NCBI GenBank assembly: GCA_046539325.1
Contig: JBKHHD010000002.1
Location: 53,425 to 117,424, forward strand
Origin: Candidatus Aenigmatarchaeota archaeon
Lineage (GTDB): Archaea > Aenigmatarchaeota > Aenigmatarchaeia > PWEA01
Reading direction: 5' to 3'
DNA length: 64,000 nucleotides
Both the position numbers and the translations under genes were made by a program. Under the pieces are notes generated by a model. It worked only from the letters and a program-made list of their open reading frames with translations. It did no database searches and was not told the DNA's origin. Positions 3,386 through 54,854 of this stretch are shown one piece after another. Positions within the stretch are counted from its first letter, which is position 1, and each line of letters begins with the position of its first letter.

Positions 3386-3594
3386 GGGCCCGTGGTCTAA
3401 TGGCAATGCAGAACCGTGTTCCGATTTACGGTTTGCACCGGAATGACGTCGCCCTTGCAAGGCGAAGACTGTGGGTTCAAAAGAGACCACTTTGGAATGA
3501 AAACACTTTACTGAAAACGGAGTTTTCGTAAAGATCCAAGCTTCGTTTGAAATATTTTCCAAAGGGTTTTCTGGAATTCCCACCGGGTCCACCA
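3386..3594 (+). tRNA. tRNA-Ala(TGC) in ITS with D-loop (~3406-3443) and T-loop (3482-3577) introns, CCA encoded
   Basis: GGGCCCG/CGGGTCC acceptor, TCGCC-CT-TGC-AA-GGCGA; BHB at T-loop restores TTCAAAT. Confidence 0.9.
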
Positions 3595-3786
3595 GTACTG
3601 TTCGCGATTTTAGAAAGTTTTAAATAACTTCACTGTTACAGGACTTTTGAACCTGATACAGGCCTGATAAGATGACTGGAAAGTAAGACTTGAAGGATTA
3701 GTTGCTTACTTCAGTCTGTTCTTTTTCGTTTTGTTGTATAGTTTTAATGTGCAGCTCTCTACCGCAGGTAGAGGGTGAAGAGTGAT

Positions 3787-3866
3787 AAGGGACGATGAAT
3801 TGAGTTTTGTGAACACCCTTTGATCCCGAGAGGGAGATGATAGTAAGACGATCACAAGAGTCCCTT
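3787..3866 (+). ncRNA. Box C/D guide RNA in the 16S-23S ITS (predicted targets 23S U2552 and U1920)
   Basis: Terminal stem AAGGGAC/GTCCCTT, two K-turn motifs, 10- and 11-nt perfect complements to 23S obeying the D+5 rule. Confidence 0.85.
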
Positions 3867-3967
3867 GGATGAGCTGTTATACGTCAAGTCTTGGAAACTT
3901 ATGTTTCCAGTTTGAAATCCGAGAGGATTTCAAGACCCACCAGCCAACTAGGCTGGAATGGGTCTAT

Positions 3968-6922
<2,955 letters not shown>

Positions 6923-7067
6923 CCATGGACGCATTCCAGCCTGGGCTAAAGGTGGATCTTGAAATCAAGGAACACAAACTTAGAAACAGAGGTTTCCAAG
7001 ACTTGGCGTATAGCAGCTGAAGCTCTTTTCTCATAAGATTTAAATTGTTAGAATCAAATGTTCCTAC

Positions 7068-7523
7068 TGTGGTGAGCTGGAGAGGGACCACCGGGATAGT
7101 TTGGATGAGGTTGTTTTCCTTCACAGGAAACACCCTTGTATTCCCGGAGGAAGCTCCTCCCACCCGTTGTGCTGTAAAAGTGCAACGAGGCCCAGGCTCG
7201 CAAGAGTCCGTCCTGAGAGGGAACGGAACAGGGAACAGAAACGATACCCCCGCGCTGGAGCGTTGAAAGCTGAGAAGGCACGGAGGGATGGAACGTACCC
7301 TGATCTGGGTGGTGCAAGACCAAATAGGCTCCGGGAAATGGATGTGCCTTGCACGTCGGTCTCTTGGAGCGGGTAGGTCGCTATTTGGAGTCCGTGAGGG
7401 CTTCAAACTTGGAAGCATCTGCTTCCGAGAAGATGAATGTCCCGAAGACCTGACATGGACGCGGACTTCGTCCACGTCGTTTTTGGGTCCGAACAGAAGG
7501 AGGGCTACTCCCAGCACACCACA
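7068..7523 (+). ncRNA. rnpB: RNase P RNA
   Basis: P4 halves GAGGAAGCTCCTCCCAC and AACAGAAGGAGGGCTAC, AGAAAC and GGTGCAAG motifs, terminal pairing TGTGGTG/CACCACA, TATA at ~7039. Confidence 0.9.
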
Positions 7524-7549
7524 CTATTTTCTCGCTTGGATTTTAGGCA

Positions 7550-7931
7550 CTACAGAACTTTACGCTTTATTCTTCTGTAATATCTGAGGAACAAACCTAT
7601 AATAATCGAAAAGGCAGTAAATATCAGAAAGTAATAAGGTGGAAACAGCTCTTCGGGTGGGGCTGTTGGAGCTGGTCTTGTTTCGAGACCCAAAGTAAGT
7701 TGAAATAAGAGAATAGTGACGAATATAGTTAACAAAATCAAGGCCTTTCTCTGCATCTTGTCGTAACCTGTAAATATAATATAAATTACTAAGACAAGAC
7801 CAGCAAGTGGTAGTATGAGAGTAGAAGTAAAGCCGACAACAGGTCTAAGGGTTGAAGCTATGAAACCAAGTAAAAATAAAAAATCCGAAAACTAAGAAGG
7901 ATTTTCCGGCTTTCTCTGTAAAGTTTCTCAT
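7550..7931 (-). pseudogene. Small membrane protein gene, apparently frameshifted
   Basis: ATG at 7931 is out of frame with a hydrophobic frame that runs into ORF 7550-7756; shift near the A-run at 7872-7883. Confidence 0.5.
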
Positions 7932-8114
7932 AATTATGTTTCAGTGTTTCTATTTAATTAATTTATTAAGGCACTACACTTCCTTAATCTCTATATTCCA
8001 CTCATCTTTAAGCTTACATACAGGTTATCTTCTGTCCTTCCACCCTCCTCAAATAAATACCTAAAATCTCATTGGTTGGTATTTCGCCGGCTTCACATGA
8101 CACTCATAACCAGG

Positions 8115-8366
8115 TTATTCATTCATTCTAATTACTCTTTTTCTACTTGTTGAATACCTCTTGAACCCTGCATAGAGTAAGTTGGCAAGTCCCACTGTCC
8201 ACCATCCCAAGAATAGGAATATCAAGAAGTGTGCTAATCCACTGCCATAAGAATATCTCTCCATCACTACTTTATGGTGAGCATCGGTCTTCACTTTCCA
8301 ACCCTCTTCTATTAGGTCATTCTTCTTGTTTTCTAACTCCTCCTTTGAGTCAACAGTCAGAGCCAT
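8115..8366 (-). CDS. Small membrane protein
   Basis: 83 aa, GAGGTGA SD, hydrophobic segment ending GWWTVGLANLLY. Confidence 0.75.
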   Translation of the reverse strand: MALTVDSKEELENKKNDLIEEGWKVKTDAHHKVVMERYSYGSGLAHFLIFLFLGWWTVGLANLLYAGFKRYSTSRKRVIRMNE

Positions 8367-8723
8367 TTATCTATCACCTCCCCCTTGACTTATCTATCAT
8401 ACTTGCATCTTTTACTAAAAAAGGTACTAAAGATATAAAAGATTAAGTTTCTTAAAATTCTTCTTCTGAACTAGGAAAGAACTAGAATATACGCCCAAAC
8501 CAATACCCATAGAAGAATAAAGGATTTCAAGGACTACAACTTTTAAATAGATTCGTTTGTAAAACTATAGTGGAAGGTAACACAGGCCAGTGATCTAGGC
8601 GGTGAGGTACTTCCAGAAGATTGCACTATTTTCTTTCATGGATTTTAGGCACTACAGGTAGAGCTGCGGTGTTGTCTTCGGGTACCCAATGACTTAAGTA
8701 TCTGTCTTCTTCAATACAAATCC

Positions 8724-9770
8724 ATGGAAAGTGAGAAGGAGTACATCAAGCCCGATATTGTAACATCTTCTGTCAGGAATGTTGAGCCGCTTAAGGAGAA
8801 GGACAAGGTTCCAGTTCTGAAGAAGGATGGAAGTCCGGAGCCTGGAGACGTAGCCGTTGCGAAGGTTGTCGAGGAAGGCGGAAGCTACGACGAGGCAGAG
8901 CTGGAGGGCGGTGAAATGGTAAAGCTGGAAGAGGGTGATTTAATTGTGGGCGTCCTGGGCGTGAGAAAAGCTGTCCGTGGCTTTGCCTCAAGAATACCTG
9001 AAAAACTGGAAAGGGGGGATCCCATCGACTTCGTCTCGTCAGGAGGCGTGATGGCGGAATGTTTGAGCTCGCCTGAAGAGCTCGGTAAGCCCTACCGTCT
9101 GGAGTTCAGAGGCTTCGTTGCAAACGATACAGGTAAGGTAAATATATCCGAATACTCGATAGATCTTCAGGACAAACTAAAGGTGGACTGTCCTGTAGTC
9201 CTTGTTGCAAGCTCTAGAATGGACGCAGGTAAGACCACGTTATGTGCAGGGCTTATTGAAAAGTTCTCTGAAAGAGGTAAAAAGGTCGGAGCTGTAAAAC
9301 TCACAGGGGTTACAAGGCAGAGGGACAACCTCAGCATGAAAGAAGCCGGGGCCATCTGCTCCTACGAGTTTACGGACTGCGGGTTACCTTCTTCGACATG
9401 CAGTGCTGAAAAAGCTGTGAAGGCTAGCAAGGGGCTTATAAGCGAAGCTGCCGAAGGCGCGGACATCGTAGTCGCAGAGTTGGGTGCAGGTCTACTTTCC
9501 TCCTACAATGTTCTGGAAGTTTTGAAGGACGGAGAGATAAAGGAAGCATGTAGCAGCCTTATATTCATGTCCATAGATCCTGTGGGCGCCTACGGAGGCT
9601 TGAGAATACTTAAGGACCATAGCTACAGGCCTGATGTAATCTCCGGGCCCACTACTGATACGGATGCAGGAAGGGAAAACATACGGAGGTTTACTGAAGT
9701 ACCTGTCTTAAACGGGATACACGACATAGACAAAATATCCCAAATCATTTTCGAAAAGGTGTTTTCGTGA
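8724..9770 (+). CDS. DUF1611-like P-loop protein
   Basis: SSRMDAGKTT Walker A, KLTG and FTDCGLPS motifs. Confidence 0.7.
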   Translation: MESEKEYIKPDIVTSSVRNVEPLKEKDKVPVLKKDGSPEPGDVAVAKVVEEGGSYDEAELEGGEMVKLEEGDLIVGVLGVRKAVRGFASRIPEKLERGDPIDFVSSGGVMAECLSSPEELGKPYRLEFRGFVANDTGKVNISEYSIDLQDKLKVDCPVVLVASSRMDAGKTTLCAGLIEKFSERGKKVGAVKLTGVTRQRDNLSMKEAGAICSYEFTDCGLPSSTCSAEKAVKASKGLISEAAEGADIVVAELGAGLLSSYNVLEVLKDGEIKEACSSLIFMSIDPVGAYGGLRILKDHSYRPDVISGPTTDTDAGRENIRRFTEVPVLNGIHDIDKISQIIFEKVFS

Positions 9771-10720
9771 GAAAGGTCGCTGTTCTCTGGGATGAAAGGT
9801 ATATTTCTGAGGATGAAGTTCTCTTTGAAGACGAGAAGCTGAAGAAGACTATGGAATACTTCTGCAAACAAGGAGAAAGAAAAGGGCTGAAGGTCTACGT
9901 TTCGCACTTTTCTTCCTACGACAAAGGTAAGCTTGAACAGGCCTATACTTTTGATGGTCAGTGGAAAGAGGTAAAAAACATAGAGATAGATCTGGTCTTT
10001 GACAAGTTCTACTTCAACGAAGAGACGAAGGAGCTGAAGTACAGGATTGATGAAGAGGTAGGTATATTCAACCAGCCCGAGTTCGAGGAGTTCTGCAAGG
10101 ACAAGTTCAAAGTCTACTGCACCTTCGCTGGTTACGTGCCCAAGACTGTCAGGGCAAATAAAAACGACCTCGATAAACTTCTCGACGAGTTGATAACGGA
10201 AAATATAGTGGTGAAACCACGCTTCGGATCTGGAGGTGAGTCCGTTAAGATCGTGTCTAAGGACAAGGTTTCAAAAGCTCTGGAAGGCTTTGACGACGAA
10301 GAAATAAAGGAAGGTAATGTACTTCTACAGGAGTTCGTAGACTCCTCAAGAGGCATTCCATCCCTCGATGTAAACGGAGTCCATGATCTGCGAATTGTAC
10401 TTGTAGACGGAAAGCCCTCCTATTCCTTTGTAAGGACTCCTGAAAGGGGAAAAATAAGCAACGTGAGCAGAGGCGGAAACATGGAAACTGTTTCCCTGGA
10501 AAACATCCCTGAGAAAACAATGGACGTGGTAAAAGAAATCGACAAAGTGATGTCAGATTACGATGACCGGATTTACTCCATAGACTTCCTGTTCAGTGAA
10601 AGTGGGGAACCTTTCGTAGTGGAACTCAATTCAAAGCCCGGGATAAAGTTCAACGGAGAAGAAGTTACAAAGAGGAAGAAGAAGTTCATCCAGGATATAA
10701 TTCAAGCACTGAGTTCCTAG
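9767..10720 (+). CDS. ATP-grasp ligase (RimK/YheCD-like)
   Basis: KPRFGSGG, QEFVD, DLR, SNVSRGG, ELNSKPG. Confidence 0.85.
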   Translation: MRKVAVLWDERYISEDEVLFEDEKLKKTMEYFCKQGERKGLKVYVSHFSSYDKGKLEQAYTFDGQWKEVKNIEIDLVFDKFYFNEETKELKYRIDEEVGIFNQPEFEEFCKDKFKVYCTFAGYVPKTVRANKNDLDKLLDELITENIVVKPRFGSGGESVKIVSKDKVSKALEGFDDEEIKEGNVLLQEFVDSSRGIPSLDVNGVHDLRIVLVDGKPSYSFVRTPERGKISNVSRGGNMETVSLENIPEKTMDVVKEIDKVMSDYDDRIYSIDFLFSESGEPFVVELNSKPGIKFNGEEVTKRKKKFIQDIIQALSS

Positions 10721-11601
10721 ACCTCCTGGGCGGAAAGGGCCTTCTGTTTAACGAAGGTTACCATCTCCTCGGGTATATCGACACCCACCACTTCCGAAGT
10801 CTCCTCAGTTATTCCAGGAGAAGCGTTTATCTCAACTATAAAGCCTTCCTCGTCGGAGCTTATTATATCAACGCCGCAGATATCAAAGCCCGTGAGCTTT
10901 GAGGCCTTTACTGCCATCTCCCTCATCCACTCTGGTGCATCGAACTCCTCGCGGTTACCGCCTCTGGAGATGTTAGAACGCCACTCTTTCTCCAAGCCTA
11001 TCCTCTTGTAGGAGTAGGTTTCTTCTCCTATCACCAAGATCCTTATATCTTCGCCGGGGTTCTCTATAAAGTCCTGTAAGCATATATCCTGTTCAAACAC
11101 CTCCAATGTATCGATTATAGGGCGAAGCTCTGATTCGTCCTTGGCTCTCATTATTCCCTTTCCACCGTAGCCGGAAATGAGCTTTATAGTTACAGGATAG
11201 CCTATGTCCTTCGCGGCATCGGTCGCTGCCTCAGTGGAAAGCGTATATATGGACCTCGGAACCTTCACCTCGCTTCCACTGAGCTCTTTGACCGTGGAGA
11301 ACTTGTTCGAGGATATTGAAAAGGAATCAGAATCCATGTGTACGTAGGAGTCCGATTCGTTGAGTATCTCTATTAACTGCTCCGAAAACAGAAGGTCCTC
11401 CCCCGAAAGCCTTGGAAAGACAACATCAAAGTCTGTGAGTTCCGTGTTTTTGTACATAACCCTTGGACTTCCATCGAATCTATATTCGTACCTCACACCT
11501 TCTATCGGAACTGCAAGCACGCTTTCAAAGTACTCCTCTGCCTTCTCGATGATGTAAGGATGCTGCTCAAGGAACGGAGTATATATTATTGCAAACTTCA
11601 T
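10717..11601 (-). CDS. RimK/LysX-family ATP-grasp ligase
   Basis: GYGGKG, DIR, WRSNISRGG, GVD, EINASPG all intact. Confidence 0.9.
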   Translation of the reverse strand: MKFAIIYTPFLEQHPYIIEKAEEYFESVLAVPIEGVRYEYRFDGSPRVMYKNTELTDFDVVFPRLSGEDLLFSEQLIEILNESDSYVHMDSDSFSISSNKFSTVKELSGSEVKVPRSIYTLSTEAATDAAKDIGYPVTIKLISGYGGKGIMRAKDESELRPIIDTLEVFEQDICLQDFIENPGEDIRILVIGEETYSYKRIGLEKEWRSNISRGGNREEFDAPEWMREMAVKASKLTGFDICGVDIISSDEEGFIVEINASPGITEETSEVVGVDIPEEMVTFVKQKALSAQEV

Positions 11602-12437
11602 CTTTCCTCACCTTCTCCTTCAGGCTTTAACATATCAGCTATCTTTTCGAAACTGTTCTTCCCTGAAACCTTCATGAACCTCTCCACATCAGGATTCATG
11701 TGCATATCAACAACCTTGGAATCAACCAGCCTTACCGAGCAGAACTGGGAGCCTATCGCTTCGGCAGCGTTTTCCACAATTTCAGCAACATCTGAGGGAG
11801 GTTTATGGTATTTCTCGCTGGAGCTATCCCTCTTTGGTGACTTTCTCCATGAGTCGCTGCTTATCTTCGTCGAAATGATGTCACCGTCTATGTAAAGACA
11901 GTCGTAAACTTCACCCTCAATGAACTCCTGAACAACCATATAGTTCTTTCCGTGCTCAAGGCTCTCGGAAAAGGCCTCTATGCTGTCTGGATCCTCTGTC
12001 TTCATTATATCCTTCCTTTCAAAGCCCTCGAATTTCTTGCAGACAACATCACCGTCAAACTCCTTCTTGACACCGTTTATTGACTTTTCTGAAGACACGA
12101 CAAAGGTCTTCGGGACAGGTATATTCTTCTCAGTAAGCACTTTGAAGAGGTATGGCTTCTTCGCTATTATGTAGTAGGAAGTACCGTCCATAACCGTGTT
12201 TATATCCTTCTCCATTATACTTTCAAGAAATATTCTTGTGAAAGTCAGGGCCTTCGGAGTAGGTCTTATGAAAAGCGCATCGTAGTCCTCGACCCTTCTT
12301 CCACCGACGTAAGAAACAACTTCCTCCTGGTTCGCATCTATCTTTACGTCTTCTATAGAGTAGTTGTGAAGCTCCTCGAAGTAGTCCTCGAACTTCTCCC
12401 CCAACGACTGATCCTCAGTTATCGTCAATAAATTCAT
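11598..12437 (-). CDS. Degenerate RimK-like ATP-grasp protein
   Basis: IPVPKT, VQEFIEG and WRK retained; glycine loop and ExN motif lost. Confidence 0.75.
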   Translation of the reverse strand: MNLLTITEDQSLGEKFEDYFEELHNYSIEDVKIDANQEEVVSYVGGRRVEDYDALFIRPTPKALTFTRIFLESIMEKDINTVMDGTSYYIIAKKPYLFKVLTEKNIPVPKTFVVSSEKSINGVKKEFDGDVVCKKFEGFERKDIMKTEDPDSIEAFSESLEHGKNYMVVQEFIEGEVYDCLYIDGDIISTKISSDSWRKSPKRDSSSEKYHKPPSDVAEIVENAAEAIGSQFCSVRLVDSKVVDMHMNPDVERFMKVSGKNSFEKIADMLKPEGEGEER

Positions 12438-13992
12438 CTAAACCCCCCTCTTCGTCTTCCTCCTCCGGAACCCAAATCCTCCTGACTTTTTCCTCCGACC
12501 TCCAGTCCTCGGCGAACTTGCTTACGGAGCTTGGTATAACCTCCTTCAGTATGTTCCCCTTTCTTGCTATCTTTGAAAGCTGGACCTCCAAACTCTTTGA
12601 AAGCTTGTCGTAGAGCTTCGGATGTGAGTATACAAGGCCTTCCTTCAACCTCCAGTAGGCCGTGGTTCCTTTCGGAGCAAGCGGTATATAGCCCCTGGAC
12701 TTATCGTACTCCTTCATTGCCTCCTGCATGTCACTGTAGCTTACGTAGTAGACCCCTCCGCTCTTTGAGCTCGGATCCATGACAAGGATCTCGTCGCCTT
12801 CAACACCCAAACATAGAACGTAGTGGCCTGTGGTCGCATCAGGGAATATGACAGGCTTCATGAAGTGTAGTACAACCAAAGCGCCATCGTTCAGCCAGAC
12901 CTTGAGCTCCCTCTTCAGGTTGCTTATCTCCTCGTATGAAATGTAGCTTGCATAGACCTCGCCGTTTGTAAGGCTTTCAACTGAATCAGCAAGATCCTCA
13001 CCCTCCGTTCCTCCGTCCAGCTTTGTACCTGCTTCCTCGCCTATCTCTTCCTGACTCACGTCGTATCCGAAGATCGCTAGAGCCATTTCTGCCGAAGCAG
13101 GCCCGCAGTACGCGGGATTCTGCGCCCGAAAGTAGTCGGTTACTTCGTCCAACGTCTCCACATCGGCCTTAGTCCTTTTGAAGTAAACCTCTCCGTCCAT
13201 GGCCTCGCTGTTAGGTACAAACATGAAGTAGCCCGAGTCCGTGGAAATCGTAGTTCCGAACTTAGTTATATCACGTATCTCACCGGACTCTTCCTTGAAC
13301 TTCACCTTCCTTCCCTTCTTAAACATATTCGAGCTCTTGAGGTAGAATCCGGCGGCGTAGTTGACCACAAGATCCTTGAATCCAAAGAAAAGTATCAACG
13401 CGACCACGAAGACAATGGCATAGGCTGCAGCCTTTAGCGTCTCCTCCAGAAGGTAGGACGAAACGCCTGCCTGTACAACTGCCATCTGTACCACAAGGAC
13501 GTAGAGGAATATCCTGAATACCTTAAGTATTATGTCCACGGCCCTTGGGCTCAGGCCAAAGTCCTCTGTAAACTCACCCATGTCTATGGCCTCGAAGAAC
13601 CTTCTAAGGAGGTCCATCACCAGGTTTACGACTATGAAACCAAGTACTATTATCAGAACCGTGGATATAAGGGTTGGAAGGTTGTCAAGTGTTTGTACAA
13701 TTATATTGTTGGTCATGGGTGCATTGAGGAAAAGCAGGGCGATGAGTATAACAAATATAAGGGCTATGTACTCCACTATCTTCGACGGCTCTGACTTCCT
13801 TTTCTTGATACTTTCAACTGCATCCTCCCCAGAAGTCCTCCTCATAGTCACATGCCGCGAAAGCTTTGAGATAAGCTTGGTTAGAAAGATACCGACCAAA
13901 AGGATTAGTATAGTACCTATTATCCTCCCTTCAGTAGGCTCAAGGAAGAAATCTACAAGTGCGCCAAAAGAATTTTCCAACATTGTAATCAT
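12415..13992 (-). CDS. MscS-family membrane domain fused to a C39-like cysteine peptidase
   Basis: Multiple TMs, FKDLVVNYAAG and MscS beta-domain, then QNPAYCGPAS, GHYV and MDP (Cys-His-Asp). Confidence 0.85.
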   Translation of the reverse strand: MITMLENSFGALVDFFLEPTEGRIIGTILILLVGIFLTKLISKLSRHVTMRRTSGEDAVESIKKRKSEPSKIVEYIALIFVILIALLFLNAPMTNNIIVQTLDNLPTLISTVLIIVLGFIVVNLVMDLLRRFFEAIDMGEFTEDFGLSPRAVDIILKVFRIFLYVLVVQMAVVQAGVSSYLLEETLKAAAYAIVFVVALILFFGFKDLVVNYAAGFYLKSSNMFKKGRKVKFKEESGEIRDITKFGTTISTDSGYFMFVPNSEAMDGEVYFKRTKADVETLDEVTDYFRAQNPAYCGPASAEMALAIFGYDVSQEEIGEEAGTKLDGGTEGEDLADSVESLTNGEVYASYISYEEISNLKRELKVWLNDGALVVLHFMKPVIFPDATTGHYVLCLGVEGDEILVMDPSSKSGGVYYVSYSDMQEAMKEYDKSRGYIPLAPKGTTAYWRLKEGLVYSHPKLYDKLSKSLEVQLSKIARKGNILKEVIPSSVSKFAEDWRSEEKVRRIWVPEEEDEEGGLDEFIDDN

Positions 13993-14094
13993 GTTGTAGT
14001 TTTTGTTTGCCCCAGGACAGTTTTACACTTATCTAATTTAAAACTAACCCCTGTTTTTGGAGTAAAAAGCATCTTGCGGAGCATATCCAACACA

Positions 14095-14235
14095 TTAGAA
14101 GACTCCGTGGCCGTCGAACCTGTCCCTTTCCTTTCTAAGCTTCACATAGCAGTCCGTACAGAGAATTCTTCCGCCATCCTCGAACCTCCTGCTAGACCGC
14201 TTCCAGAAAGTCCCGCACTCATCACATATGGGCAA
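14095..14235 (-). CDS. 46-aa CxxC-CxxC zinc-finger microprotein (not in ORF track)
   Basis: TTG start after GGTGA SD; PICDECGTFWKRSSRRFEDGGRILCTDCYVKLRKERDRFDGHGVF. Confidence 0.65.
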   Translation of the reverse strand: MPICDECGTFWKRSSRRFEDGGRILCTDCYVKLRKERDRFDGHGVF

Positions 14236-14342
14236 GCTCTCACCAACAGACCTTTCCTGAGAACGAAGGTTTATAAAAATTTCCCGAGGCGTGGAGACAA
14301 GTTTTAAATATATAAAGGATAAACTTAAGGAAGTGTTTTGAA

Positions 14343-14507
14343 ATGGAACTGATGTGTAACTCTTGTGGCACGAACCTCATAGGGGAAGACGACTTCGTCA
14401 GGTTTGACTGTCCGAACTGTGGAGAGTCAACAGTGATAAGGTGCAGGAAGTGCCGCAGGAAGAAGAACCCTTACAAGTGTGAGGAGTGCGGTTTCGAAGG
14501 ACCGTGA
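14343..14507 (+). CDS. Zn-ribbon protein, DUF1610/HVO_2753 family (not in ORF track)
   Basis: MELMCNSCG...FDCPNCGE...IRCRKCR...YKCEECGFEGP. Confidence 0.9.
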   Translation: MELMCNSCGTNLIGEDDFVRFDCPNCGESTVIRCRKCRRKKNPYKCEECGFEGP

Positions 14508-14550
14508 CCTTTATATTACTAAGGTTCCGAAAATAGGTATGGTGTCTTAA

Positions 14551-14976
14551 ATGCCCGGAATGTTTGCAGCGAGAAAGCTCAAAAAAGATAGGAAGAAGTT
14601 CCGCTGGAAGGAGAAGGACTACAAGGACAGAATGACCCAGTTCAAGAAGAAGAGAGGTCCCCTTGAAGGAGCCCCACAGGGTAAAGGGATTGTCCTGGAA
14701 AAGCGGGTAGTTGAAGCTATGCAGCCCAACTCAGCACTGAGAAAATGTGTAAGGGTACAGCTTCTGAAGAACGGCAAGCGTGTAACGGCTTTCTGCCCAG
14801 GCGACGGAGCGATAGAGCATATTGACGAGCATGATGAAGTTCTTATAGAAGGACTGGGCGGTTCAGGAAAGGGAGCCAAGGGTGATATTCCTGGTGTAAG
14901 GTGGAAGGTAATCCAGGCCAACGGTGTTTCACTCAAAGAGCTGGTCAGAGGAAACAAGGAGAAACCAACGAGATGA
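14551..14976 (+). CDS. rps12: Ribosomal protein uS12
   Basis: [24 protein letters not shown]. Confidence 0.98.
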
Positions 14977-14982
14977 TAAACT

Positions 14983-35054: not shown

Positions 35055-35255
35055 GCCGGGGTAGCGAAGCCAGGTCCAACGCGCCGGATTTGAGAACGGA
35101 TCTATTGACGAGAGGATGATATAACTGTTTCAAGAGATCCGGTGGGCCGCGTAAGGTCCTGTATCTGTGGAAGTCCACGTGGGTTCAAAAGAGAACGCTT
35201 TGGAAGTGAAAACACCTTTTCCAAAGGGTTTCTGAAAGTCCCACCCCCGGCGCCA
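35055..35255 (+). tRNA. tRNA-Ser(TGA) with three introns (35095-35136, 35154-35171, 35190-35238), CCA encoded
   Basis: CCGGA-TT-TGA-G..A-TCCGG; BHB motifs at anticodon, variable arm and T-loop. Confidence 0.9.
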
Positions 35256-35273
35256 CATAAAAAAGGTGAAAAA

Positions 35274-35744
35274 ATGGTTGAAGAAAGGAAAAACATATTA
35301 AGAATTTTCAGGACGGACATTCCCGGAGACTGGAAAATAGGTGAAGGTCTGAGACAGCTAAAGGGTGTTAGCTTTTCAACAAGCAAGCCCATACTGAAAA
35401 AAGCAGATGTAGACCCTACCAAGGCCGCAGGGGATATAACTGATGAGGAAAAAGAATCTATAAAGGAAGTTATAAAGTCAGGACAGATCCCCTCGTACCT
35501 ACTCAACAGAAGGAAGGATCCAGAAATAGGAGAAGATAGAATGCTTACCTCAAACGACCTGGAAATTCAGGAGAGACAGGATATAGAGGATATGAAGAAG
35601 CTCGGCAGCTACAGAGGAATGCGTCACAGACATGGACTTCCGGTGAGAGGTCAGAAGACACAGTCCAGCTTCAGAGGAGACAGCTCTGTCGGTGTAGCTA
35701 CAGCTGAAATAAAGGCAGAAAAATCAGGGGAAGAAGGTGAATAA
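35274..35744 (+). CDS. rps13: Ribosomal protein uS13
   Basis: YRGMRH..GLPVRGQKT. Confidence 0.97.
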   Translation: MVEERKNILRIFRTDIPGDWKIGEGLRQLKGVSFSTSKPILKKADVDPTKAAGDITDEEKESIKEVIKSGQIPSYLLNRRKDPEIGEDRMLTSNDLEIQERQDIEDMKKLGSYRGMRHRHGLPVRGQKTQSSFRGDSSVGVATAEIKAEKSGEEGE

Positions 35745-42902: not shown

Positions 42903-42907
42903 ATGAT

Positions 42908-44706: not shown

Positions 44707-44707
<1 letters not shown>
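42908..44707 (+). CDS. rpoB1: RNA polymerase subunit B' (Rpo2C)
   Basis: GDKFATRHGQKG, GGLRLGEME. Confidence 0.98.
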
Positions 44708-48337
<3,630 letters not shown>

Positions 48338-48338
48338 G

Positions 48339-48743
48339 ATGAAGAAAAAGTTTGACAAGGAAGCAATACAGGCCATAAATCTCTTTGAGGAAGAAACCGA
48401 CGTTGAGGTCAGGGACTTCATACACGACGACGAGTCCGCTTATTTTTTGGTAGAAGAAGGTAAAGCAGGATTAGCTATAGGTAAGAACGGCAAAAATATA
48501 AAGAACATTGGCGAGATGCTCGGGAAAAGGATCAAAGTATTCGAAAACGAAAAGGACGACAAAAAGCTTGTGAAAAACATGGTCATGGAGTCTAACTCCG
48601 TAAAGATAGAAGGCGACACTGCCTACGTAGATGTAGATGAGGAAGACAGAGGTAGGGTAATAGGTGCAAACGGCAGTAATATAGAAAAGGTAAGGACTCT
48701 GCTTAGAAGAAACAGCGATCTTAAGGATCTGAAGCTAGAGTAA
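48339..48743 (+). CDS. nusA: Archaeal NusA
   Basis: AIGKNGKN and VIGANGSN KH motifs. Confidence 0.93.
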   Translation: MKKKFDKEAIQAINLFEEETDVEVRDFIHDDESAYFLVEEGKAGLAIGKNGKNIKNIGEMLGKRIKVFENEKDDKKLVKNMVMESNSVKIEGDTAYVDVDEEDRGRVIGANGSNIEKVRTLLRRNSDLKDLKLE

Positions 48744-48783
48744 AGGAAAGCTTTATAATTTTATTCCGACCAGTACATTTCTA

Positions 48784-48887
48784 GGGTCCGTAGCTCAGTT
48801 GGCAGAGCGTCAGGCTCTTAACGTTTGGGGCTAACGTCCTGGAGGAAAGAAACCTGAAAGTCGCGGGTTCAAATCCCGTCGGACCCA
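48784..48887 (+). tRNA. tRNA-Lys(CTT) with 37/38 intron (48821-48851)
   Basis: TCAGG-CT-CTT-A..A-CCTGA. Confidence 0.92.
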
Positions 48888-48930
48888 TTCTACACTTTGT
48901 TCACTTTATAGATTTAACCCAGCAAAGAAA

Positions 48931-49185
48931 TCAAAGAAGAGAAACGTTCTCGACTTCAACTGAAGTCACGCCTTCCATGTCGCCTATACCGTTCTCTATA
49001 TCGTCGGTTCCTCCTTCGTCTTCGTTTCTAACAACTAAAAGCTTTAGAGCCGTTAGGCCAAAACCTATTTCCTCCCTTTCGGAGTCCTCCACAGGAAACT
49101 CCTCAGAAATTCTGTCCTTAAGTTCATCTAGATCAACTTCAGTTCCTTCCGGTGTCACCTTAAGCCAAATAGCTACATCTCCCAT
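48931..49185 (-). CDS. ef1b: Elongation factor 1-beta
   Basis: MGDV..LKV.P, EEIGFGL.AL. Confidence 0.95.
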   Translation of the reverse strand: MGDVAIWLKVTPEGTEVDLDELKDRISEEFPVEDSEREEIGFGLTALKLLVVRNEDEGGTDDIENGIGDMEGVTSVEVENVSLL

Positions 49186-49189
49186 TTTA

Positions 49190-49375
49190 TCAGTCCTTTC
49201 TTTCGCCTGTTATCTTTTTATTCTTCCAGCTTTCGCTCTTCAGTTTCTTGGTCTTCCCGAAACCACAAGCTGAGCACTGTCCCTTGGAGCGGTTGAAGGA
49301 TTTTCTGCCGCATCTTCTACAGACTCCGTGGGTCTGCTTCTTCTTCTTTCCTGCAGATGGTGTGCCCTTTGACAT
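49190..49375 (-). CDS. rpl37e: Ribosomal protein eL37
   Basis: KGTPS, CRRCG, CSACGFG. Confidence 0.96.
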
Positions 49376-49405
49376 CTAAATCACGCCTCAAGGAATCAGA
49401 TAGTT

Positions 49406-49636
49406 CTATTCGGGCGAGGCAAAAATCACGTTGTCTCCTCGTACAACTATGGTCCCTAGCTTGGTCTTGTTTCCGTCCTTGCCCATTTTCTCAGCGTTTT
49501 CTAGCCAAAGGTTAAGATGCAGGTCGAAAGCTACAAGCTTTCCAGCTATCTTCTCACCGTTTTTTAGGTTAGCGATGACCCTGTCTCCTCTGGCATTTTC
49601 GAGCGCATCCAATGGTCTTTTACCGTCTTCACCCAT
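49406..49636 (-). CDS. Sm-like (Lsm) protein
   Basis: FDLHLNL, VRGDNV; next to rpl37e. Confidence 0.95.
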   Translation of the reverse strand: MGEDGKRPLDALENARGDRVIANLKNGEKIAGKLVAFDLHLNLWLENAEKMGKDGNKTKLGTIVVRGDNVIFASPE

Positions 49637-49719
49637 GGTATCACGTTTTCTTTTATTGAAAGAGTATTTAAAGGTATGGGTCGAAAATATTTAAGTGATG
49701 AACTAAAAGGTGTGATGAT

Positions 49720-50094
49720 ATGTTAAGAAACAGGTCAAGAAGAAGATTAACCGGTGGCAAGAGAAAAAGCAAGAGGAAGTTCAGGAAGCACGAGCTGAAG
49801 AGAGAAAGTATCCTTTGCAAGGTAGGGAACAAGGAACGCAAGAAGAGAATAAACGTTAGGGGCAACCAGGAAAAAGTGAGAGCAAGGACAGTCGGAAAGT
49901 TAAACGTAGCCGACAGTGAAGGAGATACGAACATGGTAAAGATAGAGGACGTGCTCGAAAATGAGGCCAACTCCCATTTCGTCAGAAGGAGTGCACTGAC
50001 AAAGGGGACAGTAGTCAAGACGGAAAACGGCAAGGCAAAGATAACATCAAGGCCTGGTCAAGAAGGTATTGTAAACGCTGTAAGGATAGAGTAA
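49720..50094 (+). CDS. rps8e: Ribosomal protein eS8
   Basis: TSRPGQEGIVNA. Confidence 0.96.
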   Translation: MLRNRSRRRLTGGKRKSKRKFRKHELKRESILCKVGNKERKKRINVRGNQEKVRARTVGKLNVADSEGDTNMVKIEDVLENEANSHFVRRSALTKGTVVKTENGKAKITSRPGQEGIVNAVRIE

Positions 50095-50694
50095 CTACCT
50101 CCTCTCAAACCTGTAGAACCTCACCTTTACATTTTCTTTTTCCTCTTCATGCCAAGGCATAGTTCTTTTCAGAGGAAAGACAAGTTCCTTGCTTAAAGTC
50201 ACTTTACCGCCACACTTCCTGACGTATTTTCTTACAAAATCGTCGGTCTTGGACATATGGAATGAGTAGACAAGGGGCGCTATCTCCAATGATTTCTCTA
50301 TGAACGGCCTATCGCTTCCTCTTTTCTGGGATCCAAAGGGTGGGTTCTGGATAACCAGATCACCTTCGCCATCAACCCCTCTCACGTCCTTGTTCTTGAA
50401 AGTTATATCTACGTCTACCTTGTCTGCGTTTTCCCTTGCAACCCTTATAACTTTCTCGTCTATGTCCACACAAACTACCTCCCCGGCACCAAGTAGCTTA
50501 GCCCCTATTCCCAAGGTTCCTGTTCCACAGCCCAGATCATAAACTTTACTGCCTTTAAATTCTCCTTTCATATAGATGTTCCAGAGAACCGAAGAAGCTA
50601 ATTCAGGCGGAGTTCTGTACTGCTCTAGCTCCGCGCTTGGACTTTCAAAGCTCTCAAGACTCTGCAGTTTAATCTGAAGCTCTTTCATGTTCAT
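50095..50694 (-). CDS. METTL5-like RNA methyltransferase
   Basis: LEQY.TP, DLGCGTG, NPPFG. Confidence 0.9.
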   Translation of the reverse strand: MNMKELQIKLQSLESFESPSAELEQYRTPPELASSVLWNIYMKGEFKGSKVYDLGCGTGTLGIGAKLLGAGEVVCVDIDEKVIRVARENADKVDVDITFKNKDVRGVDGEGDLVIQNPPFGSQKRGSDRPFIEKSLEIAPLVYSFHMSKTDDFVRKYVRKCGGKVTLSKELVFPLKRTMPWHEEEKENVKVRFYRFERR

Positions 50695-50753
50695 ATTTCT
50701 GAATTAGGTTACAATTTTTATATAATTCCATGAAACTATTTTTACGGGGTAAA

Positions 50754-50897
50754 ATGTCAGCTCGTTTACTTGGGAGTATAGATATAGTAGGCGGCTTTCT
50801 TCTCATACTTGCAAGGAGTCACTACCCAACGTTTTCAACTCTTTTCCTCATCTTTGGAATAATTTTAATAGGCAAAGGCCTTTACTCAATGTTATGA
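50754..50897 (+). CDS. 47-aa two-TM membrane protein (not in ORF track)
   Basis: MSARLLGSIDIVGGFLLIL...IGKGLYSML; stop overlaps next start (ATGA). Confidence 0.65.
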   Translation: MSARLLGSIDIVGGFLLILARSHYPTFSTLFLIFGIILIGKGLYSML

Positions 50898-51451
50898 TCC
50901 TTGATAAAGACTTCTACTGCAGAGATCCCGCAGAGGTTGCAAAGGATATACTAGGTAAGAAGCTTGTCAAAGGAAATCTGCAAGGAAAAATAGTAGAAAC
51001 TGAAGCATATTACGGTGAAGATGACCCCGCTTCACATGCATCAAACGGAAAGACTCAGAGGAACAGGCTAATGTTTGGACAAGGTGGAAGGGTCTATGTC
51101 TATCTATGCTACGGCATGTACCACTTGCTTAACTTTACAACAGGGGAAGAAGGTAAGCCAGGAGCGGTCCTTATAAGGGCTGTTGAACCTCTACAAGGCC
51201 TGGAAAAAATGAAAAGTAATAGAAATACTTCGGAGGAAAATCTGACAACGGGCCCAGGAAAGCTTACGGAGGCCTTTGGAATAACAAACAAAGAAAACGG
51301 AGAGGATGCAACCCAAGAGGCTTCGGTAATAACTGTGGAAGGTCTGGGTAATTGCAGTGAAATAAAAAGCACAAAGAGGATAGGAGTAAGTGAACAGCAT
51401 AAAAGGGATCTACGGTTCGTATGCAAGGGCTCAGATTTCCTCAGCAGGTAA
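50894..51451 (+). CDS. mpg: 3-methyladenine DNA glycosylase (MPG/AAG family)
   Basis: IVETEAY, YVYLCYG, AVLIRAVEP, GPGKL. Confidence 0.95.
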   Translation: MILDKDFYCRDPAEVAKDILGKKLVKGNLQGKIVETEAYYGEDDPASHASNGKTQRNRLMFGQGGRVYVYLCYGMYHLLNFTTGEEGKPGAVLIRAVEPLQGLEKMKSNRNTSEENLTTGPGKLTEAFGITNKENGEDATQEASVITVEGLGNCSEIKSTKRIGVSEQHKRDLRFVCKGSDFLSR

Positions 51452-51484
51452 TAATTTTTTAAGTTAGAAACTCTTACTTATACT

Positions 51485-53095
51485 ATGCGGGGGACGAAGT
51501 GGGTTTTTATATCAGGAGGAGTTCTTTCTGGTCTCGGAAAGGGCCTTGTATCTGCTTCTGTGGGAAGGTTTATGCAGTCCAGAGGCTACGAAGTCGTCCC
51601 TATAAAATGTGACGGCTACCTGAACGTGGACCCCGGGACTATGAACCCAATAGAGCACGGCGAAGTATTCGTATTAAACGACGGCGGTGAGGTGGATATG
51701 GATTTCGGGCACTACGAAAGGTTTCTAGGAATTGAAACAAAGTTCGACTGGAACTTGACCTCAGGCAAAATATTCCAATCCGTTATCGAAAAGGAGCGTG
51801 ACGGAGAGTATCTTGGTAAGACTGTGCAGATGATACCGCACGTAACCGATGAAATAAAGGGAAGGTTAAAGAGCGCGGCCGAAGAAGAGGATGCTGATGT
51901 AGTTCTAGTTGAGATAGGCGGAACGGTCGGCGACATGGAAAATATGATATTTCTTGAGGCTGCTAGACAGATGCAGCTCGAACTACCGGAGGAAGATACC
52001 TGCCTTGTCCACGTGACTCTTGTTCCCTGGCTCGAGGCTGTAGGAGAACAGAAAACCAAGCCAACGCAGCATTCTATAAAGGAGCTCGAATCAATGGGCC
52101 TTGAAGCCAATGTCATAGTCGGAAGGGCAGAAGACAGTCTGGAAGACAAAACAAAGGATAAGATATCACTGTTCTGCAACGTTCCGAAAAAGCACGTCGT
52201 ATCTAATCCCGATGTCGAGGAAGTCTATAGAATACCTTTGAACCTGAAGGAGGATGACCTAGACGATGTCGTCTCCGACGAACTTGAACTGAGAAGCGAA
52301 GAGGTTCACATGGAAAGATGGAGGGAACTTGTAGAAAACCTGGAGGATCCTGAAGAAGAAGTAGAAATAGCTATATGTGGAAAGTATACAAAGCTCGAGG
52401 ACTCTTATGTATCGATAAAGGAAGCCTTGAACCACTGCTCCGCGCATCTAAAAACAGAGATGAGTTACAACTTTATAGAAACCACGGAAATAGAAAATGG
52501 CGAGAAAACTGTCAAAGAAGTGCTGGAAGGATCAGACGGTGTAATAATTCCAGGTGGTTTTGGAAGAAGAGGAGCAGAAGGTAAGATAAAGGTTGCTGAA
52601 TACTGCCGGAAGAACGGAGTTCCTATCCTTGGTCTCTGCTACGGGCTTCAACTCATGGTCACTGAGTTCGCAAGAAACAAATGCAACTTAGAAGGAGCTA
52701 ACAGCACTGAAGTAGATGAAGACACAGAAAATCCAGTTATAGATTTAATACCTGAGCAGAAAAACGTCGAGGCCAAAGGAGGTACTATGAGGTTGGGAGG
52801 GCAGGTAACAGAAATAAAGAAGGGGTCTATGGCTGAAGATATTTACGGCAAGAACAAAATAGAGGAAAGGTTCAGACACAGGTACGAAGTGAATCCAAAA
52901 TACCATGACTGTCTCAAAGAAAACGGCCTAAAGCTTACAGGTGTAGCGGAAAAGGAGAATCATATAGTCCAGATAGTAGAGCTGGAGGAACATCCCTTTT
53001 ACTTCGCGACACAGTTCCATCCGGAGTTCACTTCGCAGTTCGAAGAACCCAACCCTGTTTTCATGGAATTCGTAAAATCTTGCAAGGGAAGGTAG
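51485..53095 (+). CDS. pyrG: CTP synthase
   Basis: GGVLSGLGKG, KTKPTQ, CYG, QFHPEF. Confidence 0.98.
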   Translation: MRGTKWVFISGGVLSGLGKGLVSASVGRFMQSRGYEVVPIKCDGYLNVDPGTMNPIEHGEVFVLNDGGEVDMDFGHYERFLGIETKFDWNLTSGKIFQSVIEKERDGEYLGKTVQMIPHVTDEIKGRLKSAAEEEDADVVLVEIGGTVGDMENMIFLEAARQMQLELPEEDTCLVHVTLVPWLEAVGEQKTKPTQHSIKELESMGLEANVIVGRAEDSLEDKTKDKISLFCNVPKKHVVSNPDVEEVYRIPLNLKEDDLDDVVSDELELRSEEVHMERWRELVENLEDPEEEVEIAICGKYTKLEDSYVSIKEALNHCSAHLKTEMSYNFIETTEIENGEKTVKEVLEGSDGVIIPGGFGRRGAEGKIKVAEYCRKNGVPILGLCYGLQLMVTEFARNKCNLEGANSTEVDEDTENPVIDLIPEQKNVEAKGGTMRLGGQVTEIKKGSMAEDIYGKNKIEERFRHRYEVNPKYHDCLKENGLKLTGVAEKENHIVQIVELEEHPFYFATQFHPEFTSQFEEPNPVFMEFVKSCKGR

Positions 53096-53100
53096 TTTCT

Positions 53101-54222
53101 ATGGATATGAACTGGATACTCATACGTTATGGAGAAATAGGTCTCAAAAGCGACTACGTTCGCAGAAGCTTCGAGGACAGACTTATCAACAACATAAGAC
53201 AGGGTCTAGAAGAAAGGGGAATCAATGGAAAGGTGCAAAGAGGCTACTACGGAAGGATCTTCATCAGTACCGAAGAGGTAGAAAAGGCCTCAGAAGTATT
53301 AGAAAGGACCTTTGGTGTAGTTAGCTTCTCTCCTTGCAAAAAAATTTCCACGGAGCTTGAAGAAATTACAGATGAGCTTTCAAGACTGGGACAAGAGGTT
53401 TTGCAGGAAGGTGAAAGTTTTGCTGTGAGAGCGAGGAGGACAGGCGACCACTCCTTCTCCTCAAAGGACGTTGAAGAAAGAGCTGGCTCTAAGATACTTG
53501 AAAGTAAAAACGTCGAAGTGGACCTTGACGATCCGGACAAAAAGGTAATGGCTGACATAAGACAGGGCCAGAGCTACATATTCAATGAAAAAAGAAAGGG
53601 TCCCGGAGGCCTGCCTATAGGAACACAGGGCAAAGTTCTTTCACTCTTCCGAGGAGGCTGCAGCTCCTTGCTGGCTACATGGATGATGATGAAAAGGGGT
53701 TGCTCCGTTACTATTTTACACGGAAAGATGGAGCCTTACTCGGATGACGAAAACTTTGAAAGGTCCTTTGAAGTACTGAAAAACTGGAACCATGGCTCTT
53801 CCTTGGAAGTACTTGAGTTCGATCTAGGAAGTAAGATATTCCAGTTTTCGGAAGAAGGCGAAAAGGGCTACAACTGCGCTCTGTGCAGAAGATTTTTGCA
53901 CAGGCTTGCTTCAAAGGTCACCGAGGAAACAGGCTGTAAGGCGATAGTAACAGGAGACTATATAAACGGGCGCTTCGATCAGTTCCACCTGTACGACGCC
54001 GTTACTCGTACACCGATAATAAGGCCTCTTGTAGGGATGGACAAGGAGGAGATAAATAAAAGGTGTGGTGAAATAGCTCCTGATACAGAGTTCAGAGGTA
54101 GCTGCGAGGCCAAAGATAAGGGAATTTCTGAGGTAAAACAAGAAAGGCTCGAAGAGCTTGAAAAAAAGATTGATATTGAAAAATTGGTTGAAGAAGTAGG
54201 AAAAGAGGTGGTTGAGGATTAA
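53101..54222 (+). CDS. thiI: ThiI-like THUMP protein with degenerate PP-loop
   Basis: IRYGEIGLK, GPGGLP.GTQG, MMKRG; SGGIDS replaced by RGGCSS. Confidence 0.85.
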   Translation: MDMNWILIRYGEIGLKSDYVRRSFEDRLINNIRQGLEERGINGKVQRGYYGRIFISTEEVEKASEVLERTFGVVSFSPCKKISTELEEITDELSRLGQEVLQEGESFAVRARRTGDHSFSSKDVEERAGSKILESKNVEVDLDDPDKKVMADIRQGQSYIFNEKRKGPGGLPIGTQGKVLSLFRGGCSSLLATWMMMKRGCSVTILHGKMEPYSDDENFERSFEVLKNWNHGSSLEVLEFDLGSKIFQFSEEGEKGYNCALCRRFLHRLASKVTEETGCKAIVTGDYINGRFDQFHLYDAVTRTPIIRPLVGMDKEEINKRCGEIAPDTEFRGSCEAKDKGISEVKQERLEELEKKIDIEKLVEEVGKEVVED

Positions 54223-54604
54223 AATACCCAACGAAGAGCTTGTTGAGAGAATAATAAAGCAGAAGCTTAAGGAGAAGGGTGTAGTAAGAAGTCAGGAGGA
54301 GTTAGGAGAGATTGTTGAAAAGGAGTTGAAGGAAATAGACGATTCCTTTCAAATTTCACCAGAAAGAACTAGGAGAATAGCACTAAACGTCTCCGGCGTA
54401 GACGTAACCGTGGAGACAAAGAGATCAGGGGCAAGTAAGCCTGAAAAGTGTCCTGTATGTAACGAAGAGTTGAAGGGTCTATACGCAAAAAACCTTGAAG
54501 GAGAGAGGACACAGGTTGGATTTCGATGCGATAACTGCGGCTACCACGGTGACGTCGAAGAGTTTATGCCTATGAGGTATGAGTTCAAGCTCATCAAGGA
54601 TTAA
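54212..54604 (+). CDS. Hypothetical Zn-ribbon protein
   Basis: CPVC..CDNCGY, terminal P.RY.F. Confidence 0.7.
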   Translation: MRIKIPNEELVERIIKQKLKEKGVVRSQEELGEIVEKELKEIDDSFQISPERTRRIALNVSGVDVTVETKRSGASKPEKCPVCNEELKGLYAKNLEGERTQVGFRCDNCGYHGDVEEFMPMRYEFKLIKD

Positions 54605-54637
54605 ATTCTTATAGATCAAAACAGTTTCGTTAAGTGC

Positions 54638-54854
54638 GCCGGTGTGGCCGAGTCAGGCTCAAGGCGGTGGATTCGAGTCTGGATGTGTTGAGCAAACGCG
54701 ATGAAAGAGAAACATCCACTGGGCGTTAAGGACAAGTACGTAGGCCTTTGCCTACGTCGGTCGACTAGGCCCGCGCAGGTTCAAAAGAAAACCCTTTCGA
54801 AAAGTGTTTTCATTCCCAAAGAAAGGTTTTCGGAAAATCCTGCCGCCGGCGCCA
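54638..54854 (+). tRNA. tRNA-Ser(CGA) with three introns (54678-54713, ~54730-54767, 54786-54837), CCA encoded
   Basis: GCCGGTG/CGCCGGC acceptor, GTGGA-TT-CGA-G..A-TCCAC. Confidence 0.88.

Follow-up and report, generated by a model that had tools for sequence, protein, structure and literature searches.

Near-identical introns carrying the bulge-helix-bulge (BHB) splicing motif occur across tRNA species and tRNA positions in the Thermoproteales and, as far as the accessible parts of these accounts go, their gain has been taken to be a DNA-level process of unknown mechanism (PMC4090602, PMC4033280, 10.64898/2026.10.13.758758); the review text available to us also describes the gain and movement of archaeal tRNA introns in general as unknown (PMC4090602). 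Here we describe an intron family in a 64,000-nt stretch of DNA (hereafter, the window) from a DPANN archaeon of the Aenigmatarchaeota, in which three tRNA genes, Ala(TGC), Ser(TGA) and Ser(CGA), each contain a predicted BHB intron in the T-loop between positions 59 and 60 (59/60), and in which the interior of two of these introns corresponds to the reverse complement of the third. The shared interior is a hairpin module that we call E1. As reported for the transposed introns of the Thermoproteales (Fujishima et al. 2010, as presented in papers that cite it), a similar intron is found in different isotypes and at different positions. The family described here differs from them in its DPANN Aenigmatarchaeota host, in consisting of one hairpin cassette that occurs also outside tRNAs, and in including one reverse-complemented pair; the portions of the Thermoproteales accounts at our disposal (PMC4090602, PMC4033280 and the preprint) do not mention antisense copies. 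Another close case is Candidatus Micrarchaeum acidiphilum (ARMAN-2), which likewise combines 59/60 introns, a DPANN host, strict or relaxed BHB motifs and a single-chain EndA splicing endonuclease with extra units (epsilon2), although that work, in its accessible part, deals neither with a sequence family nor with orientation (PMC3239211). Our literature search, which did not cover Fujishima et al. 2010 itself, retrieved no reverse-complemented tRNA intron of such a family and no E1 cassette. What is new here is the switch of orientation at an orthologous intron site; 59/60 introns in DPANN and shared intron families were already known.

The window spans positions 53425-117424 of contig C2 in a genome (G000) of 715 kb, assembled in 10 contigs and 91% complete. 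Coordinates are positions in the window unless a contig is named; the sense of E1 found in Ser(CGA) is called A and its reverse complement B. The three genes and the parts of their 59/60 introns are as follows:

3386..3594, plus strand: tRNA-Ala(TGC) gene in the 16S-23S spacer, read by eye, with an encoded CCA, a G3:U70 pair, a D-region intron and a 59/60 intron.
3482..3577, plus strand: predicted 59/60 BHB intron of Ala(TGC), 96 nt, with E1 in B sense; central helix TTCA x TGGA with 4/4 pairs; bulges AAA and ATT.
3490..3509, plus strand: first part of the B-sense E1 of Ala(TGC), comprising the tail complement and the 5' arm of the hairpin, CTTTGGAATGAAAACACTTT, with a 16-nt exact opposite-strand match to the Ser(CGA) intron.
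3510..3554, plus strand: 45-nt insert in the E1 hairpin loop of Ala(TGC), delimited by alignment and fold, with a small hairpin of its own, GAAAACGGAGTTTTC.
3555..3572, plus strand: second part of the B-sense E1 of Ala(TGC), the 3' arm of the hairpin, TTTTCCAAAGGGTTTTCT, which after reverse complementation equals the opening 18 nt of the Ser(CGA) intron at 17/18 positions.
35055..35255, plus strand: tRNA-Ser(TGA) gene with an encoded CCA, a canonical 37/38 intron at ~35095-35136 (by eye) and a long variable arm that is probably interrupted; anticodon read by eye.
35190..35238, plus strand: predicted 59/60 BHB intron of Ser(TGA), 49 nt; central helix TTCA x TGAA with 4/4 pairs; bulges AAA and AGT.
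35198..35233, plus strand: E1 of Ser(TGA) in B sense, matching the reverse-complemented Ser(CGA) interior at 36/41 aligned positions.
54638..54854, plus strand: tRNA-Ser(CGA) gene with an encoded CCA, a 37/38 intron at ~54678-54713 (by eye) and an interrupted variable arm; anticodon read by eye.
54786..54837, plus strand: predicted 59/60 BHB intron of Ser(CGA), 52 nt; central helix TTCA x GGAA with 3/4 pairs; bulges AAA and AAT; inner helix GAAAACC/GGTTTTC.
54786..54821, plus strand: E1 of Ser(CGA) in A sense, made of one nucleotide, the hairpin GAAAACCCTTT-CGA-AAAGTGTTTTC and the tail ATTCCCAAAG.

Local alignment separated the three introns into two orientations. Ala(TGC) and Ser(TGA) scored higher forward than in reverse complement (36 versus 22), whereas the opposite was the case for Ala(TGC) with Ser(CGA) (23 versus 41) and for Ser(TGA) with Ser(CGA) (21 versus 46); the better score of any pair was reached by none of 2000 dinucleotide shuffles. 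Since a hairpin resembles its own reverse complement, we added as a control a shuffle of pairs and loop bases that keeps the fold, and here too 0/2000 shuffles attained the observed score and 0/2000 the difference between forward and reverse scores. Orientation is moreover marked by asymmetric features: the mismatch in the stem, the 16-nt exact match, present on the opposite strand only, and a non-palindromic 10-nt tail (ATTCCCAAAG), which lies 3' of the hairpin in Ser(CGA) and whose complement, CTTTGGAA(G)T, lies 5' of the hairpin in Ala and Ser(TGA). The call of orientation is independent of the palindromic stem. The first intron nucleotide (A) and the last-six block, pairable with T54-A57, keep the forward sense in all copies. 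Against the reverse complement of A-sense introns from the relatives G001, G005 and G006 and from Ser(CGA) of G000, the flipped interiors agreed at 32-39 of 40-41 positions, with scores of 16-24 versus 10-15.5 in the forward direction. In both, the tail reads GG instead of GGG, and CC replaces the CG or TG of the common form; these derived states, present in the two, suggest a single origin for the Ala(TGC) and Ser(TGA) flipped forms.

These results bear on an earlier note, made from the letters of this DNA alone, which had located the three introns at exactly the coordinates given above and had described them as one T-loop 59/60 family, present in two orientations that are reverse complements of each other, with the BHB preserved and with ~45 extra nt in the Ala copy. 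All of this was borne out: the family rests on the shared, shuffle-tested module, the insert lies within the hairpin loop, and the concern, voiced in the note itself, that the similarity might be no better than between shuffled hairpins is answered by the fold-keeping control. No second copy of the 45-nt insert beyond 12-13-mers was found in the genome.

Their structure identifies the three sequences as predicted protein-spliced (EndA/BHB) introns at 59/60. Each sits right after T54-A59 (TTCAAA) and right before T60 and the 3' T-stem, and the BHB geometry fits in 3/3 cases, with all five T-stem pairs, two 3-nt bulges and an inner helix that starts at the second intron base with at least four consecutive pairs. 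A 4-bp helix joins T54-A57 to intron positions n-5 to n-2, complete in Ala and Ser(TGA) and with three of four pairs in Ser(CGA); the minimum-free-energy fold by itself does not predict this weak helix. The acceptor stems are fully paired (7/7). ARAGORN called none of the three full genes, and upon removal of the 59/60 intron alone it recovered a full-length tRNA from all three; it names tRNA-Ala(tgc) once the T-loop intron and one D-region stretch are deleted (331 of 2614 variants). For the two Ser genes, the by-eye anticodons come from the sequences without their canonical 37/38 introns.

The splicing endonuclease is described as reading the BHB and not the intron interior, in the available text of two studies (PMC4090602, PMC3239211). 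Cleavage would survive a flip: the enzyme would read only the T-stem, the 4-bp helix with T54-A57, the two 3-nt bulges and the adjoining inner helix, and splicing would tolerate the flip because the reverse-complemented hairpin rebuilds that inner helix. The machinery of this archaeon would appear, then, to accept a reverse-complemented interior. G000 encodes EndA in a single open reading frame of 388 aa, with two tRNA_int_endo domains and matches to EndA chains in the PDB, including 4fz2 at E 2e-18. It has two catalytic-type units and an extra N-terminal unit, a multi-unit build of the kind reported, in the part of the work available, for broad-specificity EndA enzymes (PMC3239211). In its predicted architecture it is similar to the three-unit endonuclease with which ARMAN-2 cleaves its 59/60 introns; the epsilon2 type is that of the ARMAN-2 EndA (PMC3239211), and the likeness concerns the unit build only.

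Contigs from what are probably the source runs agree with the window. The flipped Ser(TGA) intron was also recovered from a different sample of the same study, in a 269-base contig that covers 35136-35404, including the whole intron, with 0 differences. At the Ser(CGA) gene, the contigs from the source runs break or branch (54673-54705 and 54789-54821), and their loose ends run into intron types of G001, with a depth higher than that of G000. A G001-like relative with A-type and variant introns is present in the source samples, which are thus shared by a sister species with other intron content.

The relatives also give polarity to the switch. The 59/60 site of Ala(TGC) carries E1 in A sense in G001 and G006, as does that of Ser(TGA) in G001. 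With five linked proteins (1012 columns), FastTree gave the topology ((G005,G006),((G000,G003),(G004,G007))),(G002,G001), with supports of 0.80-1.00 and G008 as root. G001 and G006 fall into separate clades, and G000 is nested next to that of G006, so that relatives to either side of G000 have the A state at Ala(TGC). In all the collections that we searched, 21 tRNA-intron copies of E1 were in A sense (16 in T-loops and 5 in the anticodon region) versus only two in B sense, Ala(TGC) and Ser(TGA) of G000; as the intron copies are mutually related, 21 of 23 is a tally and not a test. In every A-sense copy, the hairpin begins 0-2 nt past the 5' splice site (1 nt in Ser(CGA)). We take A to be the common orientation and Ala(TGC) and Ser(TGA) of G000 to be the flipped pair. 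The earlier note had instead considered Ser(CGA) as the inverted copy, a polarity that this tally and the G001 and G006 orthologues overturn. Ala(TGC) was not assembled in G002, G003, G004, G005 and G007, where the four pattern matches (none of them in G003) were all chance matches in coding DNA.

The presence of the same cassette in both orientations in one splicing slot of sister genomes must have involved a DNA-level step, since reverse splicing keeps orientation and an RNA-only route is excluded for that switch; the note had reasoned in the same way, and no orientation-keeping RNA route would yield an antisense copy. For this step we favour, tentatively and with a little less than even confidence, a single flip in place, combined with copying from one to the other of Ala(TGC) and Ser(TGA) through their identical T-arms. 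A 59/60 intron that was already there would have undergone this DNA-level flip a single time, with the interior between the splice-site bulges becoming reverse-complemented. It would have been driven by the terminal inverted repeat of the intron, GAAAACCC ... GGGGTTTC, which forms the BHB inner helix, via template switching or recombination between the arms. Gene conversion through the identical T-arms (GTGGGTTCAAA ... TCCCACC) would then have carried the flipped cassette from one of these two tRNA genes to the other. The single flip, its mechanism and the direction of copying are what we infer. An in-place flip is favoured because the orthologous A state occurs in two clades and because the flipped copies show no target duplication and no second host arm.

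Minute inversions at hairpins of chloroplast non-coding DNA and quasi-palindrome template-switch mutations in bacteria are comparable events, in which a segment between short inverted repeats flips and the stem is kept. Unlike in those cases, the flipped segment here would be the interior of a predicted spliced intron, filtered by the splicing motif, and the mechanism is one that we propose from the arrangement of the repeats.

Several identical blocks show recent copying of T-arm-plus-intron segments between tRNAs. Ala(TGC) and Ser(TGA) of G001 have an identical block of 73 nt in common, comprising T-arm and intron; Ser(CGA) of G000 and tRNA-Thr(CGT) of G005 agree without a difference over 44 nt, from the end of the T-arm into the first part of the intron; and the Thr(CGT) gene shares 52 identical nt with an Arg(CCT) gene from a metagenome. 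Seven of the eight E1 T-loop introns tied to genus g1 (seven genomic, one in a metagenome contig) reside in tRNAs with a GTGGG/CCCAC T-stem, and this common stem is consistent with orientation-keeping copying at the DNA level, in which recombination takes place through the T-arm. On the minus strand of G000 contig C6:35742-35980, we found an intron-less tRNA-Arg(TCT) and, ~90 nt farther on, an intron-like remnant of the family hairpin with a second copy of the 3' T-stem and acceptor strand that differs by one base. This duplicated end looks like the scar of a DNA-level replacement or integration, and the likeness is with the model of Sugahara et al. 2012 (PMC3293823), in the accessible part of which introns are gained by integration of a mobile element at a tRNA, a DNA route that leaves duplicated tRNA ends. 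Unlike in that model as available to us, Ala(TGC), Ser(TGA) and Ser(CGA) have no integrase and no long insert.

Some observations weigh against an in-place flip. The terminal repeat has only 7-8 bp, and the product of such a flip would be the same in sequence as those of two rival DNA routes considered below, one of which, a mobile element, also fits the occurrence of E1 outside tRNAs and in both orientations in relatives. At 59/60 of Ser(TGA), all seven other family genomes with an assembled T-arm have an insertion, with seven different contents, and the closest relative, G003 (~80-94% protein identity), has an unrelated intron there; with such fast turnover at these sites, parsimony from three Ala(TGC) genes is weak. 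The contigs of the four DNA runs revealed no strand-changing joint at the introns, which is uninformative on flipping because contigs drop rare variants.

The distribution of E1 is central to the first of the rival routes. We searched the three genes against relatives, a 20-base pattern with up to 3 mismatches in 371 genomes of the class, and a motif in genome and metagenome collections, on both strands throughout. The 371-genome search was noisy, with a reversed-pattern control that also matched often, and the context of 45 matches was read; it gave 1-4 pattern matches per genome. In G000, blastn-short detected four copies, all in tRNA introns: the three T-loop introns and tRNA-Ala(CGC) on contig C3:28992-29185 (locus L038). 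The latter has introns in the D-region, in the anticodon arm at ~38/39 (by eye) and in the T-loop at 59/60; its anticodon-arm intron begins with E1 in A sense (90.6% over 32 nt), and its T-loop intron is unrelated to E1. In addition, on the minus strand of G000 contig C1:45721-45747, an E1 variant, GAACCTTTTT...AAAAACGTTCGCGAAAAAGG, begins directly after the encoded CCA of a tRNA. Besides the four tRNAs of G000, E1 is borne elsewhere by Thr, Arg, Asp, Lys and Trp tRNAs, mostly at 59/60, with other positions at 38/39 (Ala(CGC) of G000), 37/38 (Asp(GTC) of G263) and in the anticodon loop (G019 and contig L065). The ~36-nt module recurs across families of the class, and we regard it as a conserved cassette that multiplies within the Aenigmatarchaeota.

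Outside tRNAs, relatives carry E1 in both orientations. Two copies lie directly behind tRNA 3' ends, one comes after a stop codon and one is in frame in a Pth2-like open reading frame. In the Pacearchaeota record L051, the radA stop codon is followed by E1 and a second hairpin module, both enclosed by two copies of the ~35 nt that end radA (by eye), with more tandem copies of the gene end upstream. The copies at start codons form a further group:

Loci L098, L100-L103, L123, L125 and L126, in genomes G263, G266, G265, G023, G220 and G221: start-codon copies of E1.

In all eight, a spacing of exactly 1 nt separates E1 from an opposite-strand start codon; rpoH (in two cases), cdc48, eIF2alpha, mcm, a peroxiredoxin, EF-1alpha and one unknown gene begin there. 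The hairpin would be in the leader there, pairing with AAGGG 7-11 nt before the AUG.

These copies make it conceivable, although we think it rather doubtful, that E1 is a small mobile palindromic element, similar to miniature inverted-repeat transposable elements (MITEs) or repetitive extragenic palindromic (REP) sequences, that entered or replaced the 59/60 intron in reverse, selection having kept the BHB-compatible outcomes. The copies outside introns, in both senses (at start codons, tRNA 3' ends, radA, the Pth2-like frame and a 23S rRNA gene described below), agree with such an element, and so do the presence or absence of the intron between orthologues of Thr(CGT) and Arg(CCT), which have an E1 intron in relatives (G005 and contig L062) and none in G000, and a slot whose content differs in every genome. 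However, the same sense in 21/23 intron copies and the start at 0-2 nt past the 5' splice site are unlike random insertion in two directions. Nor do the flipped copies show a second host arm, the inner helix being formed by the cassette's own end, or any target duplication. The earlier note had proposed copies outside tRNAs as the discriminator, and the outcome is divided: within G000, E1 proper is confined to tRNA introns, against a mobile element, with one variant right behind a tRNA and the family-like remnant at tRNA-Arg(TCT) in addition, and in relatives it is found elsewhere in both orientations, in favour of one.

MITEs and REP sequences, including bacterial interspersed mosaic elements (BIMEs), are short structured repeats that occur in both orientations and often at gene borders. 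E1 is like them in being a short structured repeat with several copies, in both orientations and at gene borders. Terminal inverted repeats are present, since the module is itself a hairpin and the two copies in the 23S rRNA gene face each other. There is no target-site duplication of fixed length: the three introns have none, the 23S copies have GTACA and radA has ~35 nt (by eye). E1 differs in its copy number of 1-4 per genome, the strong bias of orientation in tRNA introns, and the covariation and invariant mismatch described below. Neither a transposase-bearing relative of E1 nor a cognate gene of the REP-associated tyrosine transposase (RAYT) type was found, as a search of G000 (91% complete) with PF01797 (Y1/HUH, RAYT) gave 0 matches; this search did not extend to other transposase families.

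A second DNA route, which the note had not considered, needs no inversion: an ancestral intron with two facing copies of E1 (A ... B) could have lost different arms in different lineages. What is left in the common form would be the 5' copy with 8-10 nt from the end of its 3' partner; in the flipped form, it would be the 3' copy with 7-11 nt from the start of its 5' partner. An arrangement of this type exists in an uncultured archaeon (L057 159-303; the same sequence as L061), where a 145-nt insertion in the 23S rRNA gene, bordered by the direct repeat GTACA, contains two facing E1 copies (~45 nt) around a central pair of small hairpins. In addition, the end of a B copy is found again as the short 3' arm (AAAGGTTTTC / GGGGTTTC) of introns in the common form; the flipped introns have a short 5' arm (GAGAACGCTTT / GAGACCACTTT) that agrees with the beginning of an A copy at 9/11 and 8/11 positions (by eye); and CTTT/AAAG microhomologies lie at the predicted deletion joints. 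Yet no facing-copy intron was found at any tRNA site in the nine family genomes, and a long palindrome would have to last through the radiation of the genus and then suffer at least 2-3 independent arm losses, so that we regard this route as unlikely.

If an excised intron were reverse-spliced and then copied back into DNA, the kept orientation and the start at the 5' splice site in 21/23 copies would be accounted for, but this route can produce no reverse-complemented intron and is contradicted for the two flipped copies; E1 also lies antisense to genes in DNA contexts. We therefore give this RNA-level explanation very little probability. Chance or convergence of unrelated A/T-rich hairpins is refuted by the fold-keeping shuffles, the 16-nt exact antisense match and the recurrence of the module across the class, despite the facts that every BHB intron needs an inner helix and, at 59/60, a 3' end pairable with TTCA, and that near-palindromes also give many matches in forward alignments.

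In A sense, E1 consists of one base, the hairpin GAAAACCCTTT-loop-AAAGTGTTTTC and then ATTCCCAAA(G/A). We compared 22 copies from G000, relatives and metagenome contigs, with pairs counted by an anchoring script, since the MAFFT alignment misplaced the 5' arm when loops were unequal. The outer pairs covary (GAAAAC/GTTTTC, GGAAAC/GTTTCC, CCAAAC/GTTTGG, CAAAAC/GTTTTG, ACAAAC/GTTTGT, AAAGAC/GTCTTT), and a C·T mismatch (CCC against GTG) is kept in 21/22 copies. Covariation together with this conserved mismatch indicates that the predicted fold, or the dyad, is constrained, and that E1 is not a random A/T-rich hairpin. A variant, GAACCTTTTTCGAAAAAAGGTTCATCAAAAAGG, which aligns with E1 along its length (by eye), occurs in other introns of G000 and the genus. 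Rfam, searched at a permissive threshold with five E1-bearing loci, returned only 23S rRNA and chance-level matches; E1 fits no known RNA family.

E1 resembles the B recognition element (BRE)/TATA region of G000 (AAACC-TTTT...). As the main explanation, although only as such, we dropped a role as promoter: in the copies that abut start codons, about 16-19 nt separate the centre of the A/T block from the ATG downstream of it, whereas a TATA box of that gene would in archaea usually lie farther away, and in the other direction no gene follows. A C/D-box or kink-turn (K-turn) in the flipped E1 (GUGAAAA ... CUGA) was likewise discarded, since by eye the sequence does not match the consensus.

More broadly, E1 could be a class-wide self-propagating DPANN hairpin cassette that makes and overwrites BHB introns at the DNA level and also serves as a leader before highly expressed genes and a trailer behind tRNAs, a wider proposal that we consider possible without holding it to be probable. 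Either orientation would be workable for such a cassette because EndA would read only the terminal helix and the bulges. If this is true, the flipped Ala/Ser(TGA) pair is direct sequence evidence for a DNA mechanism of archaeal intron gain and turnover. The DPANN genomes studied here, with turnover of introns within a genus and copying of T-arm-plus-intron blocks between tRNAs, are a natural system to follow the gain, loss and rearrangement of introns event by event.

Introns of this kind also have consequences for annotation, as standard finders miss the genes that contain them. In the window, ARAGORN reported only tRNA-His and tRNA-Asp (0/3 of the genes studied here). The Rfam tRNA model gave 26 matches genome-wide at E <=10, with Ala(TGC) alone of the three genes among them, as a weak and partial match. 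Our own finder, based on the acceptor and T-arm, detected ~40 tRNA genes in G000, most of them with 1-3 interruptions at non-canonical places. Many of these tRNAs have introns at canonical positions with a common GATGA(A/T) motif near the 3' end (e.g., CGATGATGAAAGAAACC and GCGATGAAAGAGAAAC; also those at 35095-35136 and 54678-54713), which may be a K-turn or C-box-like element. The window contains as well the rRNA operon, the 5S rRNA and the RNase P RNA. The match to the latter, at 7072-7519, extends over 448 nt for a model of 288 positions and reaches 85.7 bits against a gathering cut-off of 84; it is probably an RNase P RNA gene with insertions.

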